The notes under the pieces are model-generated. The model did not search any database, had not been told where the DNA came from, and was given only the letters and a program-made list of their open reading frames with translations. DNA of 64,000 bases, from assembly GCA_910586295.1 (NCBI GenBank), contig CAJUGE010000070.1, forward strand, positions 17,032 to 81,031, written 5' to 3'. Made by a program: the position numbers and the translations under genes. Source of the DNA: an uncultured Bacilli bacterium (lineage in GTDB: Bacteria; Bacillota_I; Bacilli_A; RF39; UBA660). Below, one piece after another: positions 2 through 60,327 of this stretch (position 1 is the stretch's first letter; every line of letters begins with the position of its first letter).

Positions 2-982
2 GGCAATGGTTATTCTATTGAGTCATTTGAAAGGTTCTTTAAAAGTAGAAGATTTAGAAAGGTTTTGTGCCTTATTTATGCTATATATGTTATTTATGAG
101 GTTGAAAAAGTTAGTAGTGGTTTAATAGATTTTGATGATATGATGAGTTATGCTACAAATATTGTAAAAAGAAATATTATTAGGCTACCTTTTAAAATGT
201 TTATAATAGATGAATTTCAGGATACATCGTTATTAAGGTTTAATCTTATACGTGAATTAGTAAAGTTAAATGATGCTGGGTTGTGTGTAGTTGGAGATGA
301 TTATCAGTCTATTTATCATTTTTCTGGTTGTGATTTGGAGATATTTCTGAATTTTAAAGATTATTATAATGAGGCAAAAATATATAGGTTAGAAAAAACT
401 TATAGAAATAGTTTGGAACTGGTTAATACTGCTGGTAAGTTTGTTATGAAGAATCCCAATCAAATTAAGAAGAATTTAGTGAGTCCTAAGAGATTAGATA
501 AGCCTATTAATTTAGTTTATTTTAATAATATCGATAGTGTACTTGAGAGAGTAATTGGAGATATTCCAAAGGATAAAGAAATCTTAATAATAAGTAGAAA
601 CAATTTTGATATAAAGAAGTATACTAAATGTTTAAGTTATGAAATAAGAGATAACAATTATATAGAATTTCTAAAATTTAAAGATAGGAAAATAAGATTC
701 TTGTCTATACATTCTTCTAAAGGTTTAGAAAGTGATGTAGTAATTATTCTTAATGTTTCTAATGATTTATATGGGTTACCAATTAAATTGAAAGATGAGA
801 AAGTGCTTTCTTTAGTTAAAAAAAATCAACCTTATCCTTATGAGGAAGAGAGAAGACTTTTTTATGTTGCTTTAACTAGAACAAAAAGTTATATATATTT
901 GTTAGTTCCTAATAGTAAACCATCTATATTTGCAAGTGAAATAAAGTATGATGAGAATGTTAAAGTATATAGTTTTAATTGA
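2..982 (+). CDS. UvrD/Rep-family SF1 DNA helicase, C-terminal portion. The reading frame is open to the window edge, so the gene starts upstream.
   Basis: No stop codon in this frame back to position 2. Motifs FIIDEFQDTS, VGDDYQSIY, LEKTYRNS, LSIHSSKGLESDVVII and YVALTRTKSYIYLL correspond to SF1 helicase motifs III-VI. Confidence 0.7.
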   Translation, partial: GNGYSIESFERFFKSRRFRKVLCLIYAIYVIYEVEKVSSGLIDFDDMMSYATNIVKRNIIRLPFKMFIIDEFQDTSLLRFNLIRELVKLNDAGLCVVGDDYQSIYHFSGCDLEIFLNFKDYYNEAKIYRLEKTYRNSLELVNTAGKFVMKNPNQIKKNLVSPKRLDKPINLVYFNNIDSVLERVIGDIPKDKEILIISRNNFDIKKYTKCLSYEIRDNNYIEFLKFKDRKIRFLSIHSSKGLESDVVIILNVSNDLYGLPIKLKDEKVLSLVKKNQPYPYEEERRLFYVALTRTKSYIYLLVPNSKPSIFASEIKYDENVKVYSFN

Positions 983-1184
983 TTTTCTTTTCTATTGTTA
1001 TTAGTTCTCCTGGAGTACAATCTAAGTATTCACATAATAACTCTATTGTATGGAATGATATTGATGTTGTTTCTCCTTTGATAATTTTATTAATGTTAGT
1101 TTGAGAAATGTTTGTTTTTTTACATAGCCAATATTTAGATTTATTTATTCTTTTTAAAAGTTTTTCAATGTTTATTGTAATCAT
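975..1184 (-). CDS. XRE-family helix-turn-helix transcriptional regulator (69 aa)
   Basis: ISFHTIELLCEYLDCTPGELI is a classic Cro/C1 HTH. The ORF is convergent with the helicase and overlaps it by 8 nt. Confidence 0.55.
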   Translation of the reverse strand: MITINIEKLLKRINKSKYWLCKKTNISQTNINKIIKGETTSISFHTIELLCEYLDCTPGELITIEKKIN

Positions 1185-1331
1185 TTTAATACCTCTTTCA
1201 TATATAAAATTTTACTAAATATATAACTTTAAAATAACCTATATATAAAAATATCATTTGCAAATATATCACTTGTAAATCATCTGTTTTTGATATATAA
1301 TAAAATAAATGTGAGGGTAGAAAGGGAACTT

Positions 1332-2747
1332 ATGAAAAATAAATTATTAATAATTACTTTAATTGGATTACTGATGTTAACTGGATGTGAAAGTAAAAAG
1401 CAGGAGGAAAGTAAACAAGTAGTAGAAACAAATGGGATGCTAACTTATACAATAGATGGTGAAGTAGCAAAGGAAAAACCTACAAAAGAGGATGGTTACT
1501 TTGTTAATAAGATTGTGTGTGATAACGGAACAGATATGATGTGGGATAATGATAATTGGGAAGTAGAATTAACAGAAGTGAAAAGTAAAGATAGATGTAT
1601 GGTGGATTTTACAAAAGATAGTAGTGCTTCTGGGTATAGAATTACAGTTACGTCTAATAGCACATCTAGTTTAGATAGTTTATCAAAAGCTACAACTGAG
1701 AATGGAACAGTAATAATATATTCAACATCAACAATAAAAAATGTAAGTGGATGCAATGGAAAGATAGAAGGAAACAAAGTAATAGTAAGTAATGTAACAG
1801 AAAATCAAACATGCAATATAACAATGGAGCTAACTTTAGCAAATGCTATTCTAATTGCATATGCACCAAAACCAGCAAGAACATCATTTAGCATTATAGA
1901 TGATGGGATACCAGGATTATATACGGGAAGTGATGACCAAGGAACTACATACTATTTTAGTGGAGATGGTACTAACATGAATAACTGGGTAAGCTTTGCT
2001 GGGAAACTTTGGAGAGTAATTAGAATCAATGGAAACGGAAGTGTAAGGTTATTGTACGCTGGAAATGGGACGAGTGCAGTCGATGTTAGTATGAGTGTAT
2101 ATAGTTTAAATAGTAATACTTATAATCATCCTGCTTATGTAGGATGGAAATATGCAGAAGGTGAAAATATAGAAGAAAATAGAGAAAGTATTACAAATAG
2201 TGGGGCATATAATGTTGTAAATACATGGTACAATGAGTTAAGTGATGATAAAAAGAATTATATAGATATTGAAGCAATATATTGTAATGATAGAGATTTA
2301 GCAGATGGTAATTCATACAATGTAAGTAAAACATTTTACTATAATGTATATACAAGACTATTTTTATATAAAACTCCTACGTTTAAGTGTAATAATTTAA
2401 GCGATAGGTTCACGACATTTGGATTGATGACAGCAGATGAAGTGGCATTCGCAGGTGGAGTATGGGGTATACAAAACATGAAAAGTTATTATTATTTGAA
2501 TAAAATGGGGATAGGCAGTATTACTGAAGAATATGATTGGTGGACTATGACTCCTTTTCGCTGGAATAAATATTCTAATGCAGGAAGAGCTGCAATGGTG
2601 ATTATAAATGGTTCTAATGGTATGTTAAATAATTCTGATATTGCAGTAAAAAGTGCAGTTATTAGACCAGTAATTTCTATTAAAAAAGAAACTTTAATTA
2701 CTGGAGGAGATGGTAGTGGCGATAATCCTTATACTTTATCTTTATAA
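1332..2747 (+). CDS. Lipoprotein, paralog A. It has a lipobox signal peptide, a Cys-containing beta-rich segment, and a conserved WRVI...LLYAG / MTADEV / YWWT / VIRPV domain ending GGDGSGDNPYT.
   Basis: A preferred internal start MKNKLLIITLIGLLMLTGC gives a lipobox LTGC, with RBS AAAGGG upstream. Protein-level paralog of the minus-strand gene at 37700..39109. The motif set resembles a Firmicute family that may be DUF6273; this is unverified. Confidence 0.6.
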   Translation: MKNKLLIITLIGLLMLTGCESKKQEESKQVVETNGMLTYTIDGEVAKEKPTKEDGYFVNKIVCDNGTDMMWDNDNWEVELTEVKSKDRCMVDFTKDSSASGYRITVTSNSTSSLDSLSKATTENGTVIIYSTSTIKNVSGCNGKIEGNKVIVSNVTENQTCNITMELTLANAILIAYAPKPARTSFSIIDDGIPGLYTGSDDQGTTYYFSGDGTNMNNWVSFAGKLWRVIRINGNGSVRLLYAGNGTSAVDVSMSVYSLNSNTYNHPAYVGWKYAEGENIEENRESITNSGAYNVVNTWYNELSDDKKNYIDIEAIYCNDRDLADGNSYNVSKTFYYNVYTRLFLYKTPTFKCNNLSDRFTTFGLMTADEVAFAGGVWGIQNMKSYYYLNKMGIGSITEEYDWWTMTPFRWNKYSNAGRAAMVIINGSNGMLNNSDIAVKSAVIRPVISIKKETLITGGDGSGDNPYTLSL

Positions 2748-2840
2748 TATTTTATAAAAGTAGTACATATAATTATTTTGTTATATTTACTTTTTAGTAT
2801 ATTTTAGTATTTGCTTACATATTATTAGTTAGGTGATACT

Positions 2841-3134
2841 ATGGATAGAACAAGTGAACTTGGTAATAATTTTAATCATGCAATTAGTATTAATGAAAGA
2901 AAGAATGTATTAATAACTGGAGTAAAGAAATTAGAGAATTTTGATAGTAAAGAGTTTTTCTTAGAAAGTATAATGGGTTATATATTAATAAAAGGAGAAG
3001 GCTTAGAATTAATTAAATTAGATACATTTCAAGGTACTTTATCTATAAAGGGAAAAGTTAATAGTATGAATTATTTGGAGAGTGGAGGAAAGAAAGTAAA
3101 TAAAGAGAGTATGCTTTCTAAATTGTTTAAATGA
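2841..3134 (+). CDS. yabP: Sporulation protein YabP
   Basis: The core ITGV..LENFDS.EFFLES.MG.L.IKGEGLEL..L....G.L.I.G.V.S..Y matches YabP. It is followed by yabQ and divIC, as in Bacillus. Confidence 0.75.
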   Translation: MDRTSELGNNFNHAISINERKNVLITGVKKLENFDSKEFFLESIMGYILIKGEGLELIKLDTFQGTLSIKGKVNSMNYLESGGKKVNKESMLSKLFK

Positions 3135-3448
3135 GTTTAGATACTCAGATTATAAGTTTGTTATTCTCTTTTGGATATGGTATTTTGGTAAGTTATTTAT
3201 TTAATTTAAATTATAACTTTATATATTTATCTTCTCTTTTATATAGAATTGCTATAAATATATTGTTTACTGTTGATTTAGCTTTGGTATATTTCTTGCT
3301 TATAAAAGTGATTAACTTCGGGGTTATCCACATTTATTTTGTATTTGCGTTTTTGCTTGGATTTATTTTATTTGTTAATAGATATAAGTTTCTTAGAAAG
3401 ATAATTAAAGTTAAAAAGTATGTCAAAATTAAAAAATCTAGTAAATAG
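3131..3448 (+). CDS. yabQ: Spore cortex biosynthesis membrane protein YabQ
   Basis: A 105-aa polytopic membrane protein. Its start overlaps the yabP stop (ATGA). Synteny is yabP-yabQ-divIC. Confidence 0.55.
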   Translation: MSLDTQIISLLFSFGYGILVSYLFNLNYNFIYLSSLLYRIAINILFTVDLALVYFLLIKVINFGVIHIYFVFAFLLGFILFVNRYKFLRKIIKVKKYVKIKKSSK

Positions 3449-3520
3449 ATTTTTTTGACTAATTTAAAGTGAGTTCTATATTTAATACATATATATGAGA
3501 AAGTGTTGACTAATTGATAT

Positions 3521-3556
3521 TACTCTCATTATATCAAAGGATGAGAGTATTTTTGG
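3521..3556 (+). terminator. Rho-independent terminator downstream of yabQ
   Basis: TACTCTCAT, an 11-nt loop, ATGAGAGTA (9-bp stem), then TTTTT. Confidence 0.5.
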
Positions 3557-3568
3557 GCAAAAAAATAG

Positions 3569-3729
3569 GTCGTCCTCCAAAGACGGCGTTCTTGCAAAAA
3601 CGATTTAACGTTTTTATGTATGAAGTCAAATTATTGCTGGTATTTCTTGATGAAATTTTGATTTTTGAGGTAAAAAAATTAGAACGTCCTCCGAAGACGG
3701 CGTCCCTACAAAAACGATTTAACGTTTTT
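3569..3729. repeat. Two copies of a roughly 47-bp element, each carrying two hairpins. The copies lie at 3571-3617 and 3685-3729.
   Basis: The consensus is CGTCCTCC(A/G)AAGACGGCGT.C.T.CAAAAACGATTTAACGTTTTT. Hairpin 1 pairs GTCGTC with GACGGC. Hairpin 2 is AAAAACG-ATTTAA-CGTTTTT, a perfect palindrome flanked by A and T runs, so it could terminate in both directions. The element lies between convergent yabQ and the Abi gene. Confidence 0.55.
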
Positions 3730-3785
3730 CCCATCGCATGTTAACATATTATCACATAATATATGCAATGTCAAACTATTTTCAG

Positions 3786-4751
3786 TTATTTGAAGTGTTT
3801 TTCAACGATTTTTGAAAAGTATTCATATACTGATTTTAATAGTTCATTATTATTATAGTATGATTTGTGTATAATTATTCTTTTATATATGAATTTTTTT
3901 ACTTTTTTGTTCATCTTTCTTTGTATGTTTTTGTCATTAACGAAAAATTTAAACATATATATTGCACTTGTTATTTGCTTTATTCTAGAGTTTTTGATTT
4001 TTTTGATAATTATTTTTTTGCTAATATCATTTTTTGTGAGAAATTGGCTTATTTCATATGGTACATGATACTCATTGTCTTTTATCTTGAGGTCAGTTAA
4101 TACATTAGTATTGTGATATATTGCATTTCTGAGTCTTCCAACATCTCTTAGGATGAATACATTTTTGTTTTCAGATTTTAAGTTGTATTCTAAAGTGATG
4201 AAGTTATAAAAATCTATTAATTCACCAAATGTAATTATTTCTAAAAATTCCCAAATTGGAATGTTTTCTAATTTTTTGTCTTGATTAATGTCGTATTTAT
4301 TAAATATTTTCTTGTAGTAAACGCTACCTGTTTTAGTGTATATGCTTTTGTGTAATTTTTTTGGATAGTTTTTATTGTTATAGTCTTTATCTAAATATAA
4401 ATTTACAATATTATAACCATCATCTTTCTCTTTTACGATTTTTAGTATTCTTAGTTTTAAATGGTGTTCTATATTTGAGATAAGTTCAAATAAAAGTATT
4501 CTAAGTTCGTAATCTATTCTTGCTAGGTCGCATAAATATGCAAAATCCAAATCAGTATATTTGTCTATGAACTCATTATTTATATAAAACTGCTCAAAGT
4601 TGTTTTTGTATGCTGTTATGTTGTAGCAATTATTTGTTTCTTCTAAATATTTAATTGTATTTTTTTCATTAATGTGTTTAAATTTTATATTTTTATCTTT
4701 TAGTTTTTCTATCAATTCTTCTGTGCTTAGCATATGTTTATTCCCTGTCAT
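3786..4751 (-). CDS. Abi_2 family (AbiD/AbiF-like) abortive-infection protein
   Basis: N-terminal LSTEELIEKLKDKNIKF...KYLEETNNCYNITAYKN. LRNAIYHNTNV matches the Abi_2 RN..AH motif. Length 321 aa. The gene sits inside the otherwise conserved yabQ-divIC interval. Confidence 0.7.
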   Translation of the reverse strand: MTGNKHMLSTEELIEKLKDKNIKFKHINEKNTIKYLEETNNCYNITAYKNNFEQFYINNEFIDKYTDLDFAYLCDLARIDYELRILLFELISNIEHHLKLRILKIVKEKDDGYNIVNLYLDKDYNNKNYPKKLHKSIYTKTGSVYYKKIFNKYDINQDKKLENIPIWEFLEIITFGELIDFYNFITLEYNLKSENKNVFILRDVGRLRNAIYHNTNVLTDLKIKDNEYHVPYEISQFLTKNDISKKIIIKKIKNSRIKQITSAIYMFKFFVNDKNIQRKMNKKVKKFIYKRIIIHKSYYNNNELLKSVYEYFSKIVEKHFK

Positions 4752-4891
4752 AAATATTCACTTCCTATTGGAAAGTTATTATAACATGTCGTTTTATAAA
4801 TGTAAAATGCGAATTTTGTTGTGTAAAGTAGTACGTTAGGTAATTGAAACATAGTGTGATATGTGGTACTATTTTTTATAGGATGGAGAAT

Positions 4892-5179
4892 ATGAAGAAG
4901 GCTACAAAAAAAGATAAGAGAAGAATTACAGTTTTAATTATTGTTTTTGTACCGTTACTAGGTTTGTTTATTAGTAACATGTTTTCATATTGGTCTACTA
5001 TTTATTCTAATATTAAAGAAAAGAAGGAATTAGAAAAAGCGTATAAAGAGAGACTTGAGGAAGAAGAACTATTGAAGAGTGAAATTAATAAATTGCAAGA
5101 TGAAGAGTATATTGCTAGATATGCAAGAGAGAAATATTTATATAGTAAAGATGGAGAAATAATTATAAAGATAGATTAA
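4892..5179 (+). CDS. divIC: Septum formation initiator (DivIC/FtsB family)
   Basis: N-terminal transmembrane segment, a coiled coil, and the conserved C-terminal YIARYAREKYLYSKDGEII. Start chosen at MKKATKK, with RBS AGGATGGAG upstream. Synteny after yabPQ. Confidence 0.6.
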   Translation: MKKATKKDKRRITVLIIVFVPLLGLFISNMFSYWSTIYSNIKEKKELEKAYKERLEEEELLKSEINKLQDEEYIARYAREKYLYSKDGEIIIKID

Positions 5180-5248
5180 AATTAAAGTTAGTAGTTTTAA
5201 TTTATTTTTTTTAATTGTATAATAGACTTAAGAAGTAGGAGTGGTATT

Positions 5249-7330
5249 ATGTTTGATAGATTAAATGATAGACAAAGAGAAGCAGTTTTACATAAGGAGG
5301 GACCTTGTTTAGTTCTTGCAGGAGCAGGTTCTGGAAAGACTAGAGTTCTTACTGAGAGGATATGTTACTTAATAAATGAGGGAGTTAGACCACAAAATAT
5401 ACTTGCTATTACATTTACTAATAAGGCTGCAAGAGAAATGAGAGAGAGAGTTCATAATTCCATAGGAGATGAAGCGGATAAAATATTTATTGGAACTTTT
5501 CACTCTTTAGGTTTAAAGATAGTTAGAGAGAATGCAGAGGTCTTAGGATATAGTAAGAATATAACTATATTAGATAAAGATGATGTTAATTCTTTGATTA
5601 AGAAATTTATGAAAGAGATGAATCTAGATAGTGATAAGTATCCTGTTAAATATATTTTAAATAAAATAAGTTTTGCTAAGAATGAGGGACTTAGTCCAGA
5701 GCAGTATGAAAAGTTTATGAAAGGTGCTTTGGATGAGGCAGTTATTAGAATATATAAAAGATATGTTAATGCTCTTAAGAGAAATAATAGTGTAGATTTT
5801 GATGATTTACTTATAATGCCACTTGAAATATTTAAGAAAAGTGATGAAGTGATGGATAAGTATCAAGAGCATTATCAATATATATTAGTTGATGAGTATC
5901 AAGATACTAATGGGGTTCAATATGATTTATGTAAGATGCTTGCTAGTAAGTATCGTAATTTGTTTGTAGTAGGAGATATGGACCAGTCTATTTATTCTTT
6001 TAGATTTGCTAATTATATGAATGTTCTTAATTTTGAAAAAGATAATCCTGATGCTAAAGTAGTAGTGCTTGATGAGAATTATAGAAGTACTAATAATATT
6101 TTGAAGGCGGCTAATCAAGTTATTAAAAATAATACTGAAAGAAAAGAGAAGAATCTTTGGAGTAATAATGGTGATGGAGATAAGATAAAGTATGTAAGAT
6201 GTGAAGGGGAGTTAGATGAAGCTAAGTATGTTGTTAGTGAAGCAAGAAAGTTAATACAGATGGGAGAAAATCCTAGTGAGATAGCAGTTTTGTATAGAAC
6301 TAATGGACAAAGCCGTGTGGTAGAAGAGTCTTTCTTAAAAGAAGGAATACCTTTTAAAATTGTTGGTAGTTATTTCTTCTATAATAGAAAAGAGATTAAA
6401 GATTTAATTGCTTATTTGCATTTGATCTATAATTCTAATGATGATGTTAGTTTAGAGAGAGTTATTAATGTTCCTAAGAGGGGGATTGGACTTAAGACTA
6501 TAGATAAACTCAGAACAGAGGCTAATATTAGAGATGTCAGTATGTTCGATGTTATAGATAGTGGTAAAGAGTTAGAGTTTAAGAAGTTGATTATAGATTT
6601 AAGGGAAGAGAGTAAGAATACTAATTTAAGTGGACTTGTTGATTTGATATTAGATAAGAGTGGTATTAAAAAAGAACTTGAAGAGACTAATAGTTTAGAA
6701 AGTGAGATTCGTTTAGAAAACTTGGAAGAATTTAAGAGTATTACTTTGGCCTTTGAAGAAAGAGGTATATATAATTTAGATGAATTTCTTGAAAATATTA
6801 GTTTAGTTAGTGATATGAAAGAATATAAAGAAGTAGAAAATGGTGTTACTTTGATGACTCTTCATTCTGCTAAGGGGTTAGAGTTTAATAATGTTTTTCT
6901 AGTTGGTATGGAAGAAGGAATTTTTCCACATAGTAGATGCTATGAGACTCCAAGTGAGATGGAGGAAGAAAGAAGACTTTGTTATGTAGGCATTACTCGT
7001 GCTAGGAAGAAACTTTATTTGCTTAATGCTAAGAAAAGAACACTTTACGGAAAGACTACTATGAATATGCCTAGTAGATTTATAGATGAGATAAGTGAAG
7101 ATTTGGTTGAAAGTAATATTCAAAAAACACCTCAAATAAATGTTGGAAATATGTATGAGAGTGGTAGAAATGATGACTTGAATGTAGGAGATAGAGTTAA
7201 TCATGAAAAGTATGGAGCTGGGGTTGTCGTTAAAATAGATGGAAGCTTAGCTACTATTGCTTTTGGACATAAAGATGGAATTAAACAACTTATGAAGAAT
7301 CATAAGAGTTTAAAGAAAGTTGTAATGTAA
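5249..7330 (+). CDS. pcrA: ATP-dependent DNA helicase PcrA
   Basis: 693 aa. Walker A GAGSGKT, then DEYQDTN, VGDMDQSIYSFR and YVGITRARKKLYL. Immediately upstream of ligA, as in Bacillus. Confidence 0.9.
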   Translation: MFDRLNDRQREAVLHKEGPCLVLAGAGSGKTRVLTERICYLINEGVRPQNILAITFTNKAAREMRERVHNSIGDEADKIFIGTFHSLGLKIVRENAEVLGYSKNITILDKDDVNSLIKKFMKEMNLDSDKYPVKYILNKISFAKNEGLSPEQYEKFMKGALDEAVIRIYKRYVNALKRNNSVDFDDLLIMPLEIFKKSDEVMDKYQEHYQYILVDEYQDTNGVQYDLCKMLASKYRNLFVVGDMDQSIYSFRFANYMNVLNFEKDNPDAKVVVLDENYRSTNNILKAANQVIKNNTERKEKNLWSNNGDGDKIKYVRCEGELDEAKYVVSEARKLIQMGENPSEIAVLYRTNGQSRVVEESFLKEGIPFKIVGSYFFYNRKEIKDLIAYLHLIYNSNDDVSLERVINVPKRGIGLKTIDKLRTEANIRDVSMFDVIDSGKELEFKKLIIDLREESKNTNLSGLVDLILDKSGIKKELEETNSLESEIRLENLEEFKSITLAFEERGIYNLDEFLENISLVSDMKEYKEVENGVTLMTLHSAKGLEFNNVFLVGMEEGIFPHSRCYETPSEMEEERRLCYVGITRARKKLYLLNAKKRTLYGKTTMNMPSRFIDEISEDLVESNIQKTPQINVGNMYESGRNDDLNVGDRVNHEKYGAGVVVKIDGSLATIAFGHKDGIKQLMKNHKSLKKVVM

Positions 7331-7958: not shown

Positions 7959-8154
7959 AAAGATTATTATGTCTTTAAAGGAGTTAGTTTAGTAAATAGT
8001 ATTATTTGTTTGAGTATACTATTGTAAGTTAAATCTCTTGTCATAAAATAGAGAAATTTAAAAGTGTTCATATGTTATAACTATAATGGTTAAGATAAAT
8101 GTTTTTGTTATTTTCTTTTTTAGATTTCTCTTGTATAATAAAGATGGTGAATAA

Positions 8155-10504
<2,350 letters not shown>

Positions 10505-10616
10505 TAAGATTCTAAAGCTCTTATGCTTTTAGGAGTGTAAGAGTTTTCTATTTGTTAATTATTCGTTATGTAAACTAGCATAAATTAATAAAATATTGTA
10601 TAATTAGTATCAAGAG

Positions 10617-11081
10617 GTGAAAAGAATGAAAAAGTTAATTAAGGAAAATAAAGTTTTATTTGTTTTATCTATTATAATTTTAATAAGTTTGATATGCATA
10701 GGGGTGGGGTTAATAACTTATTTTTATAGTGAAGATGGAGATAAATTTGGAAATAGGTGTGAAGGTGCAGATAAGTTACCTATAAGTGAAAATATTTCTG
10801 AAGATATAAAAAGTTTATATGAAAGTGGTGTAGAGAGTGTTAAAGTTGATGTTATTTGTAAACGTATTGATGTTTTGATAGATGTTGCACCAGGTATTAG
10901 TAAGGTGGATGCTCAAAGTATAGGAGTTAGGGCATTAGAAAAGTTTACTGATGAGCAAAAATCTTTCTATGATATTTCATTTTTGATTACTTGTAAAGGT
11001 AATACTGAGGAGACTACTGTTTTTCCAATGCAAGGTATGAAAAATTCTGAAAATTCTCAAATAGTATGGACTAATAATTAA
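10617..11081 (+). CDS. Hypothetical membrane-anchored protein (154 aa)
   Basis: N-terminal transmembrane helix. No recognisable motifs. Confidence 0.4.
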   Translation: MKRMKKLIKENKVLFVLSIIILISLICIGVGLITYFYSEDGDKFGNRCEGADKLPISENISEDIKSLYESGVESVKVDVICKRIDVLIDVAPGISKVDAQSIGVRALEKFTDEQKSFYDISFLITCKGNTEETTVFPMQGMKNSENSQIVWTNN

Positions 11082-11092
11082 GAGGAGTTATT

Positions 11093-27034: not shown

Positions 27035-28924
27035 ATGAAGAAAAAAACAAGTATGACAAGGCTATTTATGCCTTATGTAGCACTTTTTGTTGTAGTTATG
27101 ATTGTATTCTTTCTATATAATATGAAAAGTGTTGTTATTCATGAGTTGAATTATAATGAATTTATGAGTAATTTAACTAAGGAACAAGTTAGTAAATTAG
27201 AGGTTACTCCAAAGAGTAGAGATAGTATTTATTATTTGGAGGGTAAACTTGAAGGTTATAAAGATAATGAAACTTTTGAATTAATAGTTCCTTATACTGA
27301 TAGTGTAATTGAGAATGTTTTAGATGAGGCTACTAAGCAAGGATTGAATGTTGAAATAAATAAAGATCCTGGTAGTATTAGTTGGATTTCTATAATTATG
27401 GAACTTATTCCACTTGCACTTATAGGCATTGTTACTTTCTATTTGATGAGGGCTATGCTTAGTCAAGGTAAAGGTGGTACTTTAGATTTTGGTAGAAGTA
27501 GAGCTAAGTTAAATCAAGATGGTGGTAAAGTTACATTTAAAGATGTTGCTGGACTTAATGAAGAGAAAGAGGAAGTTAAAGAGTTAATTGATTTTCTTAG
27601 AAATCCTAAGAAATTTCAAAAACTAGGTGCTAGAATTCCTAAGGGTGTTCTTTTAGTAGGACCTCCAGGAACTGGTAAGACATTACTTGCTAAGGCAGTT
27701 GCGGGTGAAGCAAAAGTTCCCTTTTACTATATAAGTGGTAGTGATTTTGTTGAACTATTTGTAGGTGTCGGTGCTAGTCGTGTTAGAGATATGTTTAAAC
27801 AGGCAAAGCAAACTGCTCCTTGTCTAATATTCATTGATGAGATAGATGCAGTTGGTAGACAAAGAGGAACTGGTCTTGGTGGTGGACATGATGAGAGAGA
27901 GCAAACTCTTAATCAATTACTTACTGAGATGGATGGATTTGGTGCGAATGAAGGAATTATAATTATAGCAGCAACTAATAGGCCTGATGTTCTTGATCCT
28001 GCCCTTTTAAGACCTGGTAGATTTGATAGACAAGTGACTGTTAATTTACCTGATGTTAGAGAAAGAGAAGCTATACTTGGTGTTCATGCTAAAGGGAAGA
28101 TAATATCAGAGGATGTCACTTTGAAACATTTAGCAGAGAGAACTCCTGGATATAGTGGTGCAGATTTAGAGAATTTACTTAATGAAGCAGCTTTACTAGC
28201 GGTTAGAAGAAATAAAGAATGTATAACTATGGACGAAATGGATGAAGCAAGTGATAGGGTTCTTATGGGACCTGCTAAGGTAAGTAGAAAAGTTACTCCT
28301 TTTGAGAAAAAGGTAGTTGCTTATCATGAGAGTGGACATGCAGTTCTTGGTATAGAACTTCCTAATGGTGAAGAAGTTCATAAGATTACTATTATTCCTA
28401 GAGGTATGGCTGGAGGATATACTCAGATGCTTCCTAAAGAAGAGAGAACTATGATTTCTACTAAGGATGAGTTACTTCAGAGAATAGTTAGTTATTTAGG
28501 TGGACGTGTTAGTGAAGAATTATTCTTAGGTGAAATTAGTACAGGTGCTAGTGATGACTTTAAGAGAGCAACTGCTATTGCTAGAAGTATGGTTACTGAG
28601 TATGGTATGAGTGATTTAGGACCAGTTCAATTAGAGCATAGAAGTGGAGAAGTTTTCTTAGGTAGAGATTATACTAATAGTTCTAAGAATTATTCTGATG
28701 CTGTTGCACTAGAGATAGACCAAGAGATTAGAAAGATTATGGATGAGTGTTATAAGAAAGCTAAGGATATTCTAAGTAAAAATAAGGAATTAGTTGATAT
28801 ACTTGCTCATACTTTAGAAGAAAAAGAAACTTTGACTAAGGAAGAAATCGAAGAAATAGTTAAAGATTATAAATCTGGTAATAAGGGTAAGAAAAATAAA
28901 ACCAAAGAAGATACTGAAGAGTAA
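27035..28924 (+). CDS. ftsH: ATP-dependent zinc metalloprotease FtsH
   Basis: Two transmembrane helices, AAA module GPPGTGKT...IIFIDEIDA, second region of homology, and HEAGH zinc motif (AYHESGHAV). 629 aa. Confidence 0.95.
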
Positions 28925-28938
28925 AATCTTTGGTTTTT
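28918..28938. repeat. Direct repeat copy 1 (AGAGTAAAATCTTTGGTTTTT), overlapping the ftsH stop
   Basis: Identical 21-mer to 30336..30356. The pair brackets the DUF4143 ATPase cassette. Confidence 0.6.
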
Positions 28939-28944
28939 AGTTTG

Positions 28945-29024
28945 TGAAAACGATATATCGAATTCTGTGAAAATGGTATATTGAAACTCTTGAAAATGGT
29001 ATAAAAAAACCTGAAAATGGTATA
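28945..29024. repeat. Four direct iteron-like repeats of TGAAAA(T/C)G(G/A)TATA at 21-23 bp spacing
   Basis: Copies begin at 28945, 28968, 28991 and 29012, between direct repeat copy 1 and the ATPase start. Confidence 0.5.
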
Positions 29025-29057
29025 TTGAAATGATATAATAATAATGGAGATGATATT

Positions 29058-30337
29058 ATGTCTTTAAGGAAAGAAGAATATGTAGAAAGATTAGTTGATA
29101 AAAAAATAGATAAGTATTTGACTTTATTTGTGCAGTTCATTTATATGGTCCTAAATGGTGTGGGAAAACTTGGACTGCACTAAATCATTCTAATAGTGTT
29201 ACTTATATGACTTTAAAGGATAAAAGAGCTTTAGCGATGGAAAATCCTAAGTTTATTTTCGATGATGATAGACCACAGTTAATTGATGAATGGCAGTTAG
29301 TGCCTAGTATTTGGGATGCAGTTAGGCATGAGTGTGATGTTGATAAAAACAAGGGGAAGTTTATTTTGACTGGCTCTACTACTTTAATTAAGAATGATAA
29401 AGATGAGGTGTTTCATACTGGGATGGGTAGAATAGTAGACTGTAGAATGTATCCTATGAGTTGTTATGAGTCTGGAGACTCTAGTGGCATCGTTAGTATT
29501 TTAGATATGCTTAATCAAAAGATTGAGAATAAGGGATTCAAGAGTTTAGAACTTCCAGAAATCGCTAGGCTAATAGTAAGAGGTGGTTGGCCAGAAAATA
29601 TAAAGGTTAGTGATGAAGATATTACGATATTGCCTAAGATGTATTTAGAGTCTATCATAAATAAAGATATAAATGAAAGAAAAGATAAAAAAAGAGATTC
29701 TAATAAAATGAGTATGCTTATTAGAGCACTTGCAAGAAATGAGTCTAGTGTGGTTAGTTTTAATACTTTAGTGAAAGATATAGAAGAATATGAAAGTGAA
29801 GAAGAGCTTTTAACGAGTAGGATTACGGTTGCTGATTATTTAAGTGTTTTAGATAGTTTATATTTAACTTTGAATCAAGAAGCATTTAGTATTAATTATC
29901 GTTCTTCTAAAAGAATTGGTAAATCACCTAAGAGACATTTTGTGGATCCTAGTTTAGCTTGTGCTAGTTTAGGCTTGAATGTTTCTAAGCTTATGAATGA
30001 TTTTAATACTTTTGGTCTTATGTTTGAGTCGCTTGTACTTCGTGATTTAAAAATATATATGGATACTACCAATGGTAAAGTATTTTATTTTAGAGATAAT
30101 ATTAGTGGAGCTGAAGTGGATGTTATTTTAGAGTTTGCTGATTCTAGTTATGCAGCAGTAGAGGTTAAACTTAGTTTTAATTATATTGAAGAGGCAAAGA
30201 AAAGTTTAAAGAAATTTTATGATAATGTTTCTGTTAAGCCTAAATTTATGTGTATTATAGTTGGACATTACGATGCTATTTGTAGGGATGATGAAACTGG
30301 TATATATATAGTTCCTATAAATGCTCTTAAACCTTAG
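29058..30337 (+). pseudogene. DUF4143-type AAA+ ATPase (COG1373 family) interrupted by a frameshift near 29114-29135
   Basis: Frame 0 reads MSLRKEEYVERLVDKKIDKYLTLF and stops at 29183. Frame 2 continues ICAVHLYGPKWCGKTWTALNH (Walker A) through ...IVGHYDAI. The shift lies in a TTTATTTG run. It may be a true pseudogene or a sequencing error. Confidence 0.55.
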
Positions 30338-30356
30338 AGTAAAATCTTTGGTTTTT
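30336..30356. repeat. Direct repeat copy 2 (AGAGTAAAATCTTTGGTTTTT), overlapping the stop of the ATPase gene
   Basis: Identical to 28918..28938. Confidence 0.6.
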
Positions 30357-30531
30357 GTTTTAAAAGAAAAAATTGATTAGTAAAACGTCGGGGCTTCTAA
30401 CTATTAAAGTTTAGCCATTTATGACACGAATACTAATCAATGTATGTTAATTATAACATAAGATTTGGTTGAAAGTAAATATGGCTTTATGAAAAGTTAT
30501 ATTGTATAATTAGTTTAGGGTGGTAGTTTTA

Positions 30532-31827
30532 ATGAAATATAGTTTTGTTAAAGAAATAAGAGAAATGAATTTGCAATTTTATGATTTAAAGAATTTATTG
30601 CTAGTTTTAAGTAATATGGGTGAAAAAGATTTTAAGAGGGTATATAAAAGATTAAAAAATTCAAATAATAGAGATGTGTTTGTTAGTTTAGTTAATAAGT
30701 TAATTTTAAATCAATATGGAAGTCTTGATGATGTTTTTAAAATTATGGATAAGTTGGAGCAATTGTCATTTAATGATAATGCTTTAAAGTTAGTTTATGG
30801 AGATTTTATTTATATATATAGAAGTGTAGATGAAATATTAGAATCAATGGATAAGGTTAGTGAAGAAACCGATTTTCTTATGTTTTATGATGTTTATATT
30901 TTACGATATAGAAATCATTCTGAACATATGAAATTAATTGAAAAAGCAAAGTTGTATAGATATAAGTCCTCAATTCTTATGATTGCTAGAGATGAAAATA
31001 TATTGAAAAATAGGTTTTTAGAAGAACAATTACAAATAATGACTATTGTAAAGAAACATAGATGTAATAATAAGGTAATTGATTTATTACGTAATAAATG
31101 TTTATTAGAAAATAGGACATTTGAAGATGTAGAAAATTATGTTTTAGTTTTAAAGAAATATAAATATAGTTCTATTGTATTAGATTTATTAACTAATGAA
31201 GATTTAGTAGTAGGTAGAACTGCTAATGAGCATATAGCTTTAATTGATAAGTTAAGTGAATGTGGTTTTGATTATAGAGCAAGAGAAGTATTGTCATCTG
31301 AGGCTATACTGGAAAATAGAACAAATGAAGAATCATTTAAATTATTAGAACAGGTTGTTTTAAATAATTATAATGCATATATTATGGAGCTTGTTACTGA
31401 CATTAATGTATTAAAAAATAGAAATAATGAAGATTTGCTAAAATTAATAGCAGTTTTAAAAGAGTTAGGTTATGATAGGAATGCTTATGAAATTGCTATA
31501 TCTGAAGTGGTTTTAAAATATAGAGGTGTAGATGAACAAATATTATTAATGAGAAAAATATGTGATACTTTTAGACCTAATATTAATTTATTTATTGCTT
31601 ATGATTTTGTAGCACTTTGTGATATTGGACAGCAATTAATTGCAATAGACACTAATTCTGCTAGTAAAAATATTTTAAACTTTAAAAGTGTTTTAAGTAT
31701 TGTTAGTGATGAGAAAGAGTTAGATGAACTTTTAGGTATTTTAGCTGAATGTGATGATACTAAGGAAATGAAAGTATCTGAAGAATACTTTGCTAGAAAA
31801 TTAAGACAAAGAGATTTACCATTTTAG
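30532..31827 (+). CDS. Hypothetical protein built from about seven tandem alpha-helical repeats of roughly 35 aa
   Basis: Recurring units L(L/K)(E/N)NR(T/N).E(D/E)...L..(V/L)L...GY(D)..A.E; examples include LLENRTFEDVENYVLVLKKYKY, ILENRTNEESFKLLEQVVLNNYNAY and VLKNRNNEDLLKLIAVLKELGYDRNAY. Confidence 0.5.
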   Translation: MKYSFVKEIREMNLQFYDLKNLLLVLSNMGEKDFKRVYKRLKNSNNRDVFVSLVNKLILNQYGSLDDVFKIMDKLEQLSFNDNALKLVYGDFIYIYRSVDEILESMDKVSEETDFLMFYDVYILRYRNHSEHMKLIEKAKLYRYKSSILMIARDENILKNRFLEEQLQIMTIVKKHRCNNKVIDLLRNKCLLENRTFEDVENYVLVLKKYKYSSIVLDLLTNEDLVVGRTANEHIALIDKLSECGFDYRAREVLSSEAILENRTNEESFKLLEQVVLNNYNAYIMELVTDINVLKNRNNEDLLKLIAVLKELGYDRNAYEIAISEVVLKYRGVDEQILLMRKICDTFRPNINLFIAYDFVALCDIGQQLIAIDTNSASKNILNFKSVLSIVSDEKELDELLGILAECDDTKEMKVSEEYFARKLRQRDLPF

Positions 31828-31993: not shown

Positions 31994-32806
31994 ATGGGAA
32001 AGGTTATATCACTTGTAAATCAAAAAGGTGGGGTAGGCAAAACAACCACTAGTATTAACTTAAGCAGCGCTTTAGGACATTTGGGAAAAAAAGTTTTGTT
32101 AATTGACTTTGACCCTCAGAGTAATAGTACTACTGGGATAGGTCTTAATAAGGCTGATATTAATAAAAGTATTTATGATGTTATTATGCATAGTTGTGAT
32201 ATTAAGGAGGCAATACTTAAAACTAAGTTTAAAAACCTTAGTGTTATTCCTTCTATGATATATCTTAGTGGTGCTGAGATGGAGCTTATGCAAAATGCTA
32301 TGACAGAACAAGACTATATAATAGGTGATCAATTAAAATTGCAGATTGATACTATTAGAGATAGATATGATTATATTTTGATAGATTGTCCTCCTACTTT
32401 AGGTGTTTTGACTACTAATGCTTTAGCGGCTAGTGATAGTGTTTTAATACCAGTGCAGTGTGAGTATTATTCACTAGAGGGAGTGACACAGTTACTAAAT
32501 ACAATTCTTCTTACTCAAAGTAAAATTAATCCAAAACTTGATATAGAAGGTGTACTACTAACTATGCTTGATGGTAGAACTTTGGTTGGATTAGAAGTTG
32601 TGGAAGATGTTAGAAAGTTTTTTAAAGAAAAAGTATTTAATACAATTATTCCAAGACTAGTAAGATTAGTTGAAGCACCAAGTCATGGAAAACCAATATT
32701 AGAATATGATCCGAAGTGTAGAGGTGCACTTGCTTACATTAATTTAGCGAAGGAAGTGATTGAAAGAGATGGAAAACAAGAGGAAAGCGCTAGGGAGGGG
32801 GCTTGA
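31994..32806 (+). CDS. parA: Chromosome partitioning ATPase ParA/Soj
   Basis: Deviant Walker A NQKGGVGKTTT, 270 aa. Immediately followed by parB. Confidence 0.9.
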   Translation: MGKVISLVNQKGGVGKTTTSINLSSALGHLGKKVLLIDFDPQSNSTTGIGLNKADINKSIYDVIMHSCDIKEAILKTKFKNLSVIPSMIYLSGAEMELMQNAMTEQDYIIGDQLKLQIDTIRDRYDYILIDCPPTLGVLTTNALAASDSVLIPVQCEYYSLEGVTQLLNTILLTQSKINPKLDIEGVLLTMLDGRTLVGLEVVEDVRKFFKEKVFNTIIPRLVRLVEAPSHGKPILEYDPKCRGALAYINLAKEVIERDGKQEESAREGA

Positions 32807-48024: not shown

Positions 48025-49500
48025 TTAATTGTTATTTTCTGGTTTCATAAGTGGGAATAAGACAACATCTCTTATTGAGTCAGTATTGTATATTAACATC
48101 ATAAGTCTATCAATTCCGAATCCTAGTCCTGAAATTGGTGGCATTCCTTGCTCCATTGCTAGTAAAAAGTTTTCGTCTAGGTCCATAGTTTCATCATCAC
48201 CTTGACTTTTTGCTTTAAGTTGTTCTTCAAATGTTTCTCTTTGTGTCTTAGGATTTACAAGTTCTGAATATGCTTTGCAAAGTTCGGTTCCGCCTGCGAT
48301 TACTTGGAATACGTCTATTCTTTTTGAGTCTTTGTCGTTTCTTCTTGCTAATGGAATAAGTACTGCTGGATAGTTATAAATTATTGTTGGCTCGATTATG
48401 TTTTTACGAATTTTATTTTTGTATACAAAATCGATTATTTGACTTAGTGAATGGTAGTCTTCTAGTTCTGTCAATGTAAACAATCCTTTTTCTACTATTT
48501 TTTGTTTTAGCTCGTCTGGTTCTTCTATGTTTAGAAAGTCAAAACCAAATACTTTGTTCATTTCTTCGCAGTAATTGATTTTATTCCATTCTTCTTTTCC
48601 AAAGTCAAGAGTGTTACCTTGATATTCTATAGTAGTTCCACCTGTGAGTTCTTTTAGTAGCTCTTTTATGAAGTTAGTGTAAAATTTCATGTTGTCTTCA
48701 TAGTTCCAGTAGGAAGCATACCATTCAACTTGAGTAAATTCTTGTAAGTGTTCTGTGTCCATTCCTTCGTTTCTAAAACATTTAGATATTTCATAGACTT
48801 TGTCGAATCCGCCTGCGATACATTCTTTTAAGTAAATTTCAGGTGCTATTCGTAGATTGCAGTCCATGTCTAATGCATTGTGGTGTGTAAAAAATGGTTT
48901 AGCAGATGCACCAGAGACTGCTGTTTGGAGAATTGGAGTTTCTACTTGTAGGAAACCATTTTCTCCTAAATACTTATGTAGAAATGAATAGAATTTACTT
49001 CTTCCTATGAAAATACGTCTTGATTCTTCATTAGTAATTAAGTCAACATATCTTTGTCTATATTTTATTTCTGTATCTTGTAATCCGTGGAATTTTTCTG
49101 GTAATGGTCTTAGTGCTTTTCCTAGAAATTCAAATGAATGGACTCTAAGTGTTTTTTCTCCAGTTTGTGTTGTGAATATTTCTCCAGTAGCACCTATGAA
49201 GTCTCCAGTATCAATTAGTTTTTTAAAGAAGTCATATTTTTCTTCGCCTACTAAATCAATTTTAAGTTCTAGTTGCATTGCTCCTTCTAAGTCTCTAATT
49301 TTTATGAAGCTAAGTTTTCCCATTTTTCTCATGAATACTATTCTACCTGCTAGTGATATGTTTGTTTCTCCATCACTAAGGTTTTGTGCATCTTTTAGTG
49401 TGTGTGTTTTCTTAAATTTTTCTGGATAAGGGTTACAAAATTCTGATATGCTATCTAATTTTTCCCTTCTTACAATTTCTTGTTCTGTTAATTCTCTCAA
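48025..49500 (-). CDS. lysS: Lysine--tRNA ligase (class II LysS)
   Basis: 491 aa. TTG start with AGGAGG 8 nt upstream. Class II motifs FRNEG, GGTELC... and GLGFGIDRL. Confidence 0.95.
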   Translation of the reverse strand: MRELTEQEIVRREKLDSISEFCNPYPEKFKKTHTLKDAQNLSDGETNISLAGRIVFMRKMGKLSFIKIRDLEGAMQLELKIDLVGEEKYDFFKKLIDTGDFIGATGEIFTTQTGEKTLRVHSFEFLGKALRPLPEKFHGLQDTEIKYRQRYVDLITNEESRRIFIGRSKFYSFLHKYLGENGFLQVETPILQTAVSGASAKPFFTHHNALDMDCNLRIAPEIYLKECIAGGFDKVYEISKCFRNEGMDTEHLQEFTQVEWYASYWNYEDNMKFYTNFIKELLKELTGGTTIEYQGNTLDFGKEEWNKINYCEEMNKVFGFDFLNIEEPDELKQKIVEKGLFTLTELEDYHSLSQIIDFVYKNKIRKNIIEPTIIYNYPAVLIPLARRNDKDSKRIDVFQVIAGGTELCKAYSELVNPKTQRETFEEQLKAKSQGDDETMDLDENFLLAMEQGMPPISGLGFGIDRLMMLIYNTDSIRDVVLFPLMKPENNN

Positions 49501-49502
49501 TT

Positions 49503-49729
49503 TTCTCTCCTCCTAAAATAAAAAGTTATTGAATTTAAGGGACGAGTTTACCCGTGGTACCACCCTAATTTATCAATAACTTGATCTTATTATTTATAAC
49601 GGTTATTAACCGGGCATAAGCCACTCGAAAGTTTTTATTCATATTAGGCTTGTTACCAATTTCCATCTTATTTGGCTTTCTATAAATAGTTTCTAATATT
49701 ACTCGTCTTTCTCATCGATTTATGGCTAC
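49503..49729 (-). promoter_or_regulatory. T-box riboswitch leader of lysS
   Basis: The minus strand carries AATTAGGGTGGTACCACGGG (the T-box consensus AANNAGGGTGGNACCGCGG) 30-60 nt before the start codon, followed by a T-rich tail. The 5' part has GATGAGA...AGTA (a stem I K-turn-like element). Confidence 0.65.
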
Positions 49730-50601: not shown

Positions 50602-50790
50602 AAAAGTAGTAAATTAGTAGTAAAAATTTAAATATTTTTTGAGACATTAATTTTAAATATTAAAAATGCTGTGACATTGTACATTATTAAAGTATAGTCT
50701 TATGAGCGAGACTAGTGGTGTAGCCACAAAGTCCTCGCCATAATAAGGTATAGTATTACCCTTATTATGTAGCGTGTAGCATGTAGCAAA
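50602..50790 (-). repeat. Structured intergenic repeat element of roughly 190 bp, copy 1. It lies immediately 3' of the HD-domain gene, in inverted orientation relative to copy 2.
   Basis: The reverse complement aligns with 60129..60327: TTTGCTACATGCT.CA.G.TACATAATAA.GGTAATACTAT.CCTTATTATGGCGAGGACTTT.GTGGCTAC.CCACTAG.C.CGCTCA...TATACTTT.ATA...TTTTTACTACTAATTTACTACTTTT. It contains a 10-bp hairpin, CATAATAAGG / CCTTATTATG. Confidence 0.6.
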
Positions 50791-60128: not shown

Positions 60129-60327
60129 AATAAAAACATTTGCTACATGCTTCATGATACATAATAATGGTAATACTATCCTTATTATGGCGAGGACTTT
60201 AGTGGCTACGCCACTAGACCCGCTCACAGGGTATACTTTGATACTATGACATTACATAGTATTTTTTAAATATTTAAAATTAGTACTTTGAAAGTCTTAA
60301 AATTTTTACTACTAATTTACTACTTTT
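60129..60327 (+). repeat. Structured intergenic repeat element of roughly 190 bp, copy 2, lying 3' of the kinase-like gene
   Basis: Near-identical to the reverse complement of 50602..50790. Contains hairpins CATAATAATGG/CCTTATTATG, GGCGAG...CCCGCT, and the inner AGTGGC-TAC-GCCACT. Confidence 0.6.

Follow-up and report, generated by a model that had tools for sequence, protein, structure and literature searches.

Evidence for a decaying, probably autoregulated one-gene PDC-S01 module in the ftsH–parA gap of a gut Bacilli species

We analyzed a 64,000-nt stretch of DNA from an uncultured Bacilli bacterium (contig CAJUGE010000070.1), hereafter the window; all positions count from its first letter. 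We consider it likely that positions 28939–30335, directly behind the ftsH gene, are a decaying, probably autoregulated one-gene module of the defense-candidate type PDC-S01, lodged in the ftsH–parA gap of a low-GC gut Bacilli species. The gene of this module, which codes for an ATPase-nuclease, is dead in the window strain and in most others: a G was lost before the Walker A motif, the spacing of the upstream repeat array slipped to 21–22 nt, and the −35 element was weakened. The locus itself belongs to the known PDC-S01 kind, and the points worth following are an array with a 23-bp period, found upstream of the gene throughout its family, and the covariation of this array with residue 256 of the protein. 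The coordinates of all features are collected in Table 1.

The ATPase gene encodes an AAA_14 domain (PF13173, E 1e-14) followed by a DUF4143 domain of the PD-(D/E)xK type (PF13635, E 6e-28). The original prediction had placed it among genes typical of defense islands, and this was borne out by PADLOC, whose PDC-S01 profile PDLC04790 covers residues 7–424 of the 426-aa intact allele found at 8026–9303 of strain L002 (E 7.2e-62). Across the family, three motifs are invariant, namely Walker A (here GPKWCGKT, including K37), Walker B (LIDEW), and a nuclease motif of the form D..ExK (here D..EVK, with D355, E369, and K371). As in a single-gene system, the neighbors of the family genes differ in every context examined. 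More than 8000 homologs were retrieved, many of them 67–72% identical and from gut Firmicutes metagenome-assembled genomes; the plasmid and phage collections held distant relatives only (at most 39% identical). Neither the composition nor the codon usage of the gene deviates from that of the host. No chain among the solved structures matched the protein by sequence, and neither did any NCBIfam model; the Foldseek matches in the PDB were all insignificant, the weak fold matches all being nucleases. DUF4143 (COG1373) is listed among the PD-(D/E)xK nuclease families with function unknown (PMC3424549). PDC-S01 is described as the fourth most common defense in prokaryotes and as an ATPase–PD-(D/E)xK fusion whose validation is pending (PMC12988326; see also PMC13356809).

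In the window, this gene is not an intact, expressible open reading frame (ORF). It is split into ORFs 29058–29183 (41 aa) and 29207–30337 (376 aa), which lie in different frames; frame 0 runs from 29058 to ~29129, where one nucleotide is missing, and the remainder continues in the frame of the second ORF. The lost G falls in the invariant F24-G25-A26 motif, just upstream of Walker A, where the original prediction had put the break. The same deletion is seen in nine of the ten independent metagenome contigs that encode an identical FtsH, and is therefore not a sequencing error; L002 alone is intact. Similarly, in the 90% protein cluster, the intact form is found on one contig and the 376-aa forms on at least 36, among the members listed (15 of 31). 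The frameshift is a real, dominant allele, and the pseudogene is nearly fixed in the species. That the split gene is a sequencing artefact, or is rescued by a programmed frameshift and remains functional, would be in keeping with the frequency of single-base indels in assemblies and with the otherwise good conservation of the 376-aa ORF, but is highly improbable given this recurrence. Moreover, the site lacks a slippery heptamer, a −1 slip there would put another residue in place of the invariant Gly, the ATPase of strain L010 carries a second disruption, and the array and −35 element are degraded in the frameshifted strains only.

Upstream of the ATPase gene lie four TGAAAATGGTATA-type repeats, as first reported; they start at 28945 (with two mismatches), 28968, 28991, and 29012, with spacings of 23, 23, and 21 nt. 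The unit in the window reads yTGAAAA-TGGTATAT-TGAAA. The last unit overlaps the predicted ATPase promoter, which is followed by a GGAG ribosome-binding site at ~29046–29049. In the intact strain L002, the units are spaced 23/23/23 and the −35 element is TTGAAA, whereas the frameshifted strains have a last spacing of 22 or 21 and a CTGAAA −35 element. Degradation of the array and of the −35 element in the frameshifted strains only fits decay after the gene had died. The A-run between units 3 and 4 (29003–29011) is polymorphic among strains L001–L010, being A7 or A8, and AAAAAAACCCTT in the intact strain, with last spacings of 21, 22, or 23.

Tandem repeats also lie upstream of the homologs in L092, L093, L094, and L025 and at ~70 metagenome loci (proteins 42–69% identical), and arrays precede nearly every family member over the range of 42–100% identity. 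The best period is exactly 23 bp in 74 of the 76 non-identical family upstream regions, with 2 to ~6 copies, and 113 of the 118 adjacent-unit spacings are exactly 23, the remaining five being 46. The tandem score had a median of 23 in the family versus 6 in 180 control upstream regions, with 89% of the family above the control 95th percentile. Within each unit, a conserved frame, yTTGAAAA ... AAAA, surrounds a variable core of ~10 nt that is lineage-specific and often a short palindrome (GTGCAC, TGTACA, GTCGAC, or ATGCAT). One period of 23 bp has the length of a −35 hexamer and a 17-nt spacer together; in 21 of 51 arrays, a −10 hexamer follows 22–23 nt after the last unit begins. An array with a 23-bp period, a sigma-70-type promoter whose −35 element and spacer make up the last unit, and the ORF are the hallmark anatomy of this gene subfamily.

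The repeats had been called iteron-like. A role as iterons, or as the centromere-like sites of a partition system or replicon tied to parAB and the origin region, would match the ~22-bp tandem period, which resembles that of plasmid iterons, and the presence of parA and parB 3 kb downstream. We regard this as extremely improbable. The arrays accompany the ATPase gene into unrelated contexts (rpmE–rmuC, rhodanese–uvrA, and next to HU) and include its promoter; no further such array was found in the window or in the ftsH–parA region of 80 other related species, save the one that accompanies the ATPase gene of L025. A Rep gene is missing, the surroundings are chromosomal housekeeping genes, and the plasmid and phage matches are the distant ones given above. 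Array remnants suspected behind ftsH in L012 were supported by neither a periodicity scan nor BLAST.

The ATPase is the only gene always found with the array, and one of its residues tracks the array core. Residue 256 is the variable site in an otherwise invariant R255-x-T257 motif (SRITVADYL). It is I where the core is GTATAT (ten sequences, 55–100% identical to the query), D with TCGAC or CCGAA, G with TGTACA, N with TTGCACA, and R with GTGCACTTA. A switch is also seen within a clade, L121 having A256 with TGCACAT and its relatives I256 with TGTATAT. For pairs sharing 60% identity or more, the residue at position 256 is different in 87% of those with unlike cores versus 4% of those with the same core, in a comparison that ignores phylogeny and in which same-core pairs are on average closer relatives. 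When all alignment columns were ranked by how well they track the core, position 256 came first and position 253 second. A sliding-window correlation between protein distance and core distance gave no sharp peak, and the per-column analysis was used instead.

From the sequence pattern and the secondary structure, we infer that the segment around residue 256 is a putative recognition helix of a helix-turn-helix. Fair evidence thus points to an ATPase that would bind its own array and hence regulate its own promoter. In the proposed mechanism, the ATPase-nuclease would bind the array through a helix-turn-helix located between the ATPase and nuclease domains, and residue 256 (SR-x-T) would decide which core sequence is read. 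Since the last array unit overlaps the promoter, binding at this unit would autoregulate the gene, most likely by repression. The intact protein may act as an ATP-dependent nuclease in phage defense. Neither the 23-bp upstream array nor the residue-256 covariation is described in the available text of the DUF4143 and PDC-S01 literature searched.

The module is bounded by a 21-bp direct repeat, AGAGTAAAATCTTTGGTTTTT, at 28918–28938 and 30336–30356. Both places agree with the original prediction, and no other site was found in the 64 kb at up to three mismatches (0.01 expected). The repeat grows to 26 nt if one indel is allowed (28918–28943 and 30336–30360). Each copy had been said to overlap the stop codon of the preceding gene. 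The overlap stands, and the two copies do so in different frames: copy 1 includes the whole ftsH stop TAA (28922–28924), and copy 2 begins within the ATPase stop TAG (30335–30337).

This repeat had been proposed to be an att-like core, a reading that is not supported. The final codons of ftsH form the 5′ arm of the gene's own intrinsic terminator, T1, the TAA stop beginning on the last base of the stem and reaching two bases into the loop, and the 21-mer is the 3′ two-thirds of T1, that is, the loop, the 3′ arm, and the T-tract. Across 10 species, the ftsH terminator hairpin is 98.8% paired, with compensatory changes at three pairs, versus 28–58% in slid controls; stem variants in related species include TTGAAGA/TCTTCAA, TCGAAGA/TCTTTGA, and CTGAAG/CTTCAG. 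A simple terminator scan overlooked T1 because its stem holds fewer than three G-C pairs. In L012, whose FtsH is 84% identical, the same 21-mer stands behind ftsH in a single clear copy. Behind the ATPase gene, the last codons of that gene supply the 5′ arm of a second hairpin, T2, which folds as well. Since the 21-mer folds behind both genes and is kept with compensatory changes, what was duplicated is the 3′ portion of an intrinsic terminator, that of ftsH, rather than a conserved att core, and ftsH and the ATPase gene both end in a hairpin and U-tract. Minor strain variants occur in L001 for T1 and in L007 and L008 for T2. A duplicate of the ftsH terminator within the gap is significant in the window's species only (z 9.3), the match in L012 being marginal (p 0.04). 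A third copy behind the downstream gene hyp435, spotted by eye, was not significant.

The closest relative of the window ATPase (87% identical) is encoded in L092, a sister lineage ~85% identical in DNA. The order there is ftsH-T-X-[array-ATPase]-hyp435, versus ftsH-T-[array-ATPase]-T-X-hyp435 in the window, where T is the terminator and X a structured element described below. The L092 ATPase gene thus sits after element X, without an exact 21-mer at its end, which counts against the original reading. The tail after its stop codon (AGAGAATTTGTTTGATTTT) resembles a decayed 21-mer, and a 7-nt repeat, AAGTTTT, borders the module on both sides at its new site, ~170 bp away. Either the module has changed its place, or two separate insertions took place. 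The window and L092 have diverged alike in the ATPase (84%) and in ftsH (86%), which argues that the module may be older than the split of the two lineages and would have been relocated later by ~170 bp. The arrangement of the window persists in strains whose hyp435 is 74% identical.

Element X, read on the minus strand, probably encodes a small RNA. It is conserved in L092 and in L176–178, with a fold z-score of −2.6; no compensatory pairs were seen, the comparison comprising three sequences. A candidate gene of ~85 nt within 30362–30470 (minus strand) has a conserved TGnTATAAT −10 element, a 72-nt structure that an 11-bp perfect stem closes, and then a U-tract. No Rfam family matched the array, the terminators, or element X.

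Duplicated terminators occur elsewhere in the family. In L097 (30 nt), L122 (58 nt), and L174 (39 nt), an unrelated gene lies upstream and its terminator is the one duplicated, and the repeats of these three and of the window module are mutually unrelated, each copying the local terminator. The window module, L097, and L122 share one geometry, with a left copy that stops at the start of the array or slightly within it and a right copy that opens at the stop codon of the ATPase gene; a few bases of microhomology join the two gene ends. The L122 repeat takes in the first array unit, so that a terminator and a first-unit remnant are found behind the gene. Tandem cassettes are present in L173, L175, and L134, and a solo array lies behind the gene in L146. 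Significant flanking direct repeats were detected in 8 of 64 cassettes versus 2 of 65 control genes, which leaves 56 cassettes without one. P0100, a family member listed in 2494 blocks, stands in the same surroundings at each of the 10 places shown, for which 23 contigs were read, and these places gave no sign of recent mobility in the form of the same protein in differing contexts. A scan of 20 of the ~55 large window ORFs turned up neither an integrase nor a transposase, in line with the absence of an integrase noted originally. There are no terminal inverted repeats, the sole end-to-end inverted match (I1) being the terminator palindrome itself.

Because the repeats are of varying sequence and length and are missing from most cassettes, and because the context of P0100 is constant, short-homology recombination is favored over a dedicated recombinase as the most likely route of the terminator duplication. 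This could have proceeded by tandem duplication of the terminator, array, and gene with subsequent loss of the second gene copy, or by excision of the module and its return via the repeat. The tandem cassettes, the remnant in L122, and the solo array in L146 are read as intermediates of recombination and speak for this view, as does the changed place of the module in L092. An ATPase 3′ end joined to the array start via a single 21-mer (...AAACCTTAGAGTAAAATCTTTGGTTTTTAGTTTGTGAAAACG) would indicate a circle or a tandem copy, and an ftsH-21-mer-GTTTTAAAAGAAAAAATTGATTAG junction would be the deletion product of recombination between the repeats.

The original prediction took the module for a cassette that had integrated site-specifically, its 21-bp att core recombining with the ftsH 3′ end, and that was either mobilized in trans or decayed. 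Several of its elements were recovered. The module is a discrete, lineage-specific insertion at the ftsH 3′ end; an exact direct repeat bounds it on both sides; related species offer empty sites, many having parA directly after ftsH and L012 a single clear 21-mer; the module lies at a different place in L092; and three further family members are flanked by duplicated terminators. Site-specific integration is nevertheless distinctly unlikely. The repeat is the resident ftsH terminator, kept in species without the module, and the unrelated repeats of L097, L122, and L174 leave no common family core at independent insertions. To this are added the 56 cassettes without a significant repeat, the lack of an integrase both in the one-gene module and among the scanned window ORFs, and the constant context of P0100.

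A true target-site duplication at insertion, in which a staggered break around the 3′ arm of the terminator was filled in, possibly through the action of the module's own PD-(D/E)xK nuclease on a hairpin or cruciform, would make the module a self-mobilizing one-gene element. We hold this to be unlikely. The copies that abut the array start and the ATPase stop codon in the window module, L097, and L122, in spite of unrelated terminators, would be accounted for, as would the 7-nt flanks at the new site in L092, and a nuclease domain is present; yet the length of the repeat varies from 26 to 58 nt, the first array unit within the L122 repeat is a better fit to tandem duplication, most cassettes have no repeat, P0100 keeps a single context at the places shown, terminal inverted repeats are missing, and the array is at one end only. 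Nor does the module look like an insertion sequence or transposon: the ATPase gene is its sole gene, and the only end-to-end inverted match is the terminator palindrome. It is quite improbable that a retunable helix-turn-helix effector, its matching 23-bp operator, and its nuclease together drive their own movement beside terminator hairpins, duplicating them, which would make the module a previously unrecognized one-gene mobile defense cassette.

Some observations weigh against our preferred reading of a decaying, autoregulated PDC-S01 module with a terminator copied by short-homology recombination, in addition to the neglect of phylogeny in the residue-256 comparison. DNA binding by the ATPase-nuclease is something we infer from sequence, and the AlphaFold model is poor (30 close homologs, pLDDT 57), with only the C-terminal nuclease domain confident; a profile search brought in no further diversity. 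Phage defense by PDC-S01 is described as awaiting validation (PMC12988326). The enrichment of flanking repeats is modest, the geometry of the copies in the window module, L097, and L122 also fits a target duplication at insertion, and the recombinase scan took in 20 of the ~55 large ORFs.

Table 1 Coordinates of the features in and around the module
Feature	Position	Strand	Details and basis
ftsH, 629 aa	27035–28924	+	ORF; Pfam FtsH_ext/AAA/Peptidase_M41 on identical protein; synteny LtaS-hyp220-tilS-ftsH, 80 species
T1, ftsH intrinsic terminator	28913–28938	+	Stem ACTGAAGA / TCTTTGGT, loop GTAAAA, then T-tract; folding
Array of four 23-bp-type units	28943–29032	+	28943–28965 (degenerate), 28966–28988, 28989–29009 (21 nt), 29010–29032
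ATPase promoter (predicted)	29011–29039	+	−35 CTGAAA inside unit 4, 17-nt spacer, extended −10 TGaTATAAT; promoter scan, 10/12 matches with TG
AAA_14 + DUF4143 (PD-(D/E)xK) ATPase-nuclease, PADLOC PDC-S01, pseudogene here	29058–30337	+	ORFs, Pfam, PADLOC
Frameshift site, one G lost in codon of invariant Gly25	29127–29135	+	TTTGTGCAG replaces TTTGGTGCAG
T2, duplicated terminator behind ATPase gene	30329–30361	+	5′ arm AAACC..AGA from last ATPase codons; loop GTAAAA, 3′ arm, and T-tract as in T1; folds
Element X, structured, ~70 nt, 11-bp perfect outer stem	30372–30441	−	Folding, cross-lineage comparison
hyp435, orphan strain-variable repeat protein, second lineage-specific cargo gene of the gap	30532–31827	+	ORF, cross-species comparison
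parA, conserved right border of the variable gap	31994–32806	+	Annotation, synteny

The gene order LtaS-hyp220-tilS-ftsH-[gap]-parA-parB-abgT-ychF is conserved in the 80 species compared, and the size of the ftsH–parA gap ranges from ~0.1 to 6 kb. The ATPase gene and hyp435 are absent from this gap in all 80. Other cargo found in the gap includes an intact PDC-S01 gene of a different subfamily (L016), a truncated PDC-S01 gene (L084), an AbiLi-like ATPase gene (L025), and unrelated genes elsewhere. The genes of L016 (8994–10205) and L084 (8906–9898) belong to the PDC-S01 subfamily PDLC04787, the former intact and the latter N-terminally truncated, and are preceded by two repeats ~41 nt apart, with no 23-bp array.

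The second cargo gene, hyp435, has three homolog clusters only among 5.8 billion proteins. It is 74–100% identical among strains whose flanking DNA nearly matches; it is therefore evolving unusually fast or being exchanged. In L008, which is of the window's species, an insertion sequence with a 421-aa helix-turn-helix-type transposase (9480–11090) lies between element X and the hyp435 promoter, so the gap is still taking up DNA.

Elsewhere in the window, positions 65–7330 may be a second small defense islet, comprising a truncated UvrD/PcrA-like fragment (65–982), a 485-aa ORF of unknown function (1290–2747), an Abi_2/AbiD gene (3786–4751, minus strand), and then a full-length PcrA gene (5249–7330). 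The Rfam ssNA-helicase RNA motif (RF03070) occurs in two copies above the gathering threshold, at 50739–50788 (plus strand) and 60141–60189 (minus strand). A class II aminoacyl-tRNA synthetase gene (48025–49500, minus strand) is preceded by a T-box leader (49535–49724, minus strand).

PDC-S01 is reported among the most common defense candidates, and in the available text of the reports its control and recognition target are uncharacterized (PMC12988326, PMC13356809). The outcome at the locus studied here is ordinary, a dying gene in a small variable slot, and it shows how the terminator of a neighbor was copied to serve a newly arrived gene. The locus led to a cis-element found family-wide, a strict 23-bp array with lineage-specific cores and the promoter inside. 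Together with the core-tracking residue, this array gives a testable model, in which the protein would bind its own operator array with a specificity set near residue 256, and the natural protein/operator pairs in the family are a ready test set for the binding model.

Among known systems, PDC-S01 as defined in PADLOC agrees with the module in the full-length match to its hidden Markov model, in the two-domain architecture, and in being a stand-alone gene in changing neighborhoods; it differs in that the window copy is a frameshifted pseudogene. With defense islands and integration hot spots, the ftsH–parA slot shares conserved borders, ftsH and parA enclosing PDC-S01 genes of two subfamilies, an AbiLi-like gene, and orphan genes. 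With 0–3 genes, however, the slot is very small, and neither a recombinase nor a tRNA marks it. Integron gene cassettes, which consist of an ORF and an attC hairpin, are likewise one-gene units with a hairpin-forming boundary, and occupy a slot with varying cargo. Unlike them, the module has its own promoter, its boundary hairpin is the terminator of the neighboring gene and lacks the R and L boxes of attC, there is no IntI or attI, and the repeat measures 21–58 nt, as against a core of 7 nt.

Plasmid iterons and their Rep initiators resemble the array and its protein in several respects: the repeats are direct, have a period of ~22–23 bp, are specific in sequence to the cognate protein lineage, and overlap the promoter of the protein, which suggests autorepression. 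They differ in that here there is no Rep fold, there are no origin features, the array is chromosomal and stands before a nuclease-ATPase gene, and the period is exactly that of a −35 hexamer plus a 17-nt spacer. Some defense systems have a dedicated transcriptional repressor of the BrxR/CapW type, whose operators overlap the promoter of the defense genes, implying repression until a signal is received. Compared with these regulators, the DNA-reading element of the PDC-S01 module would seem to lie inside the effector itself, and its putative operator is a tandem array of 2–6 units.

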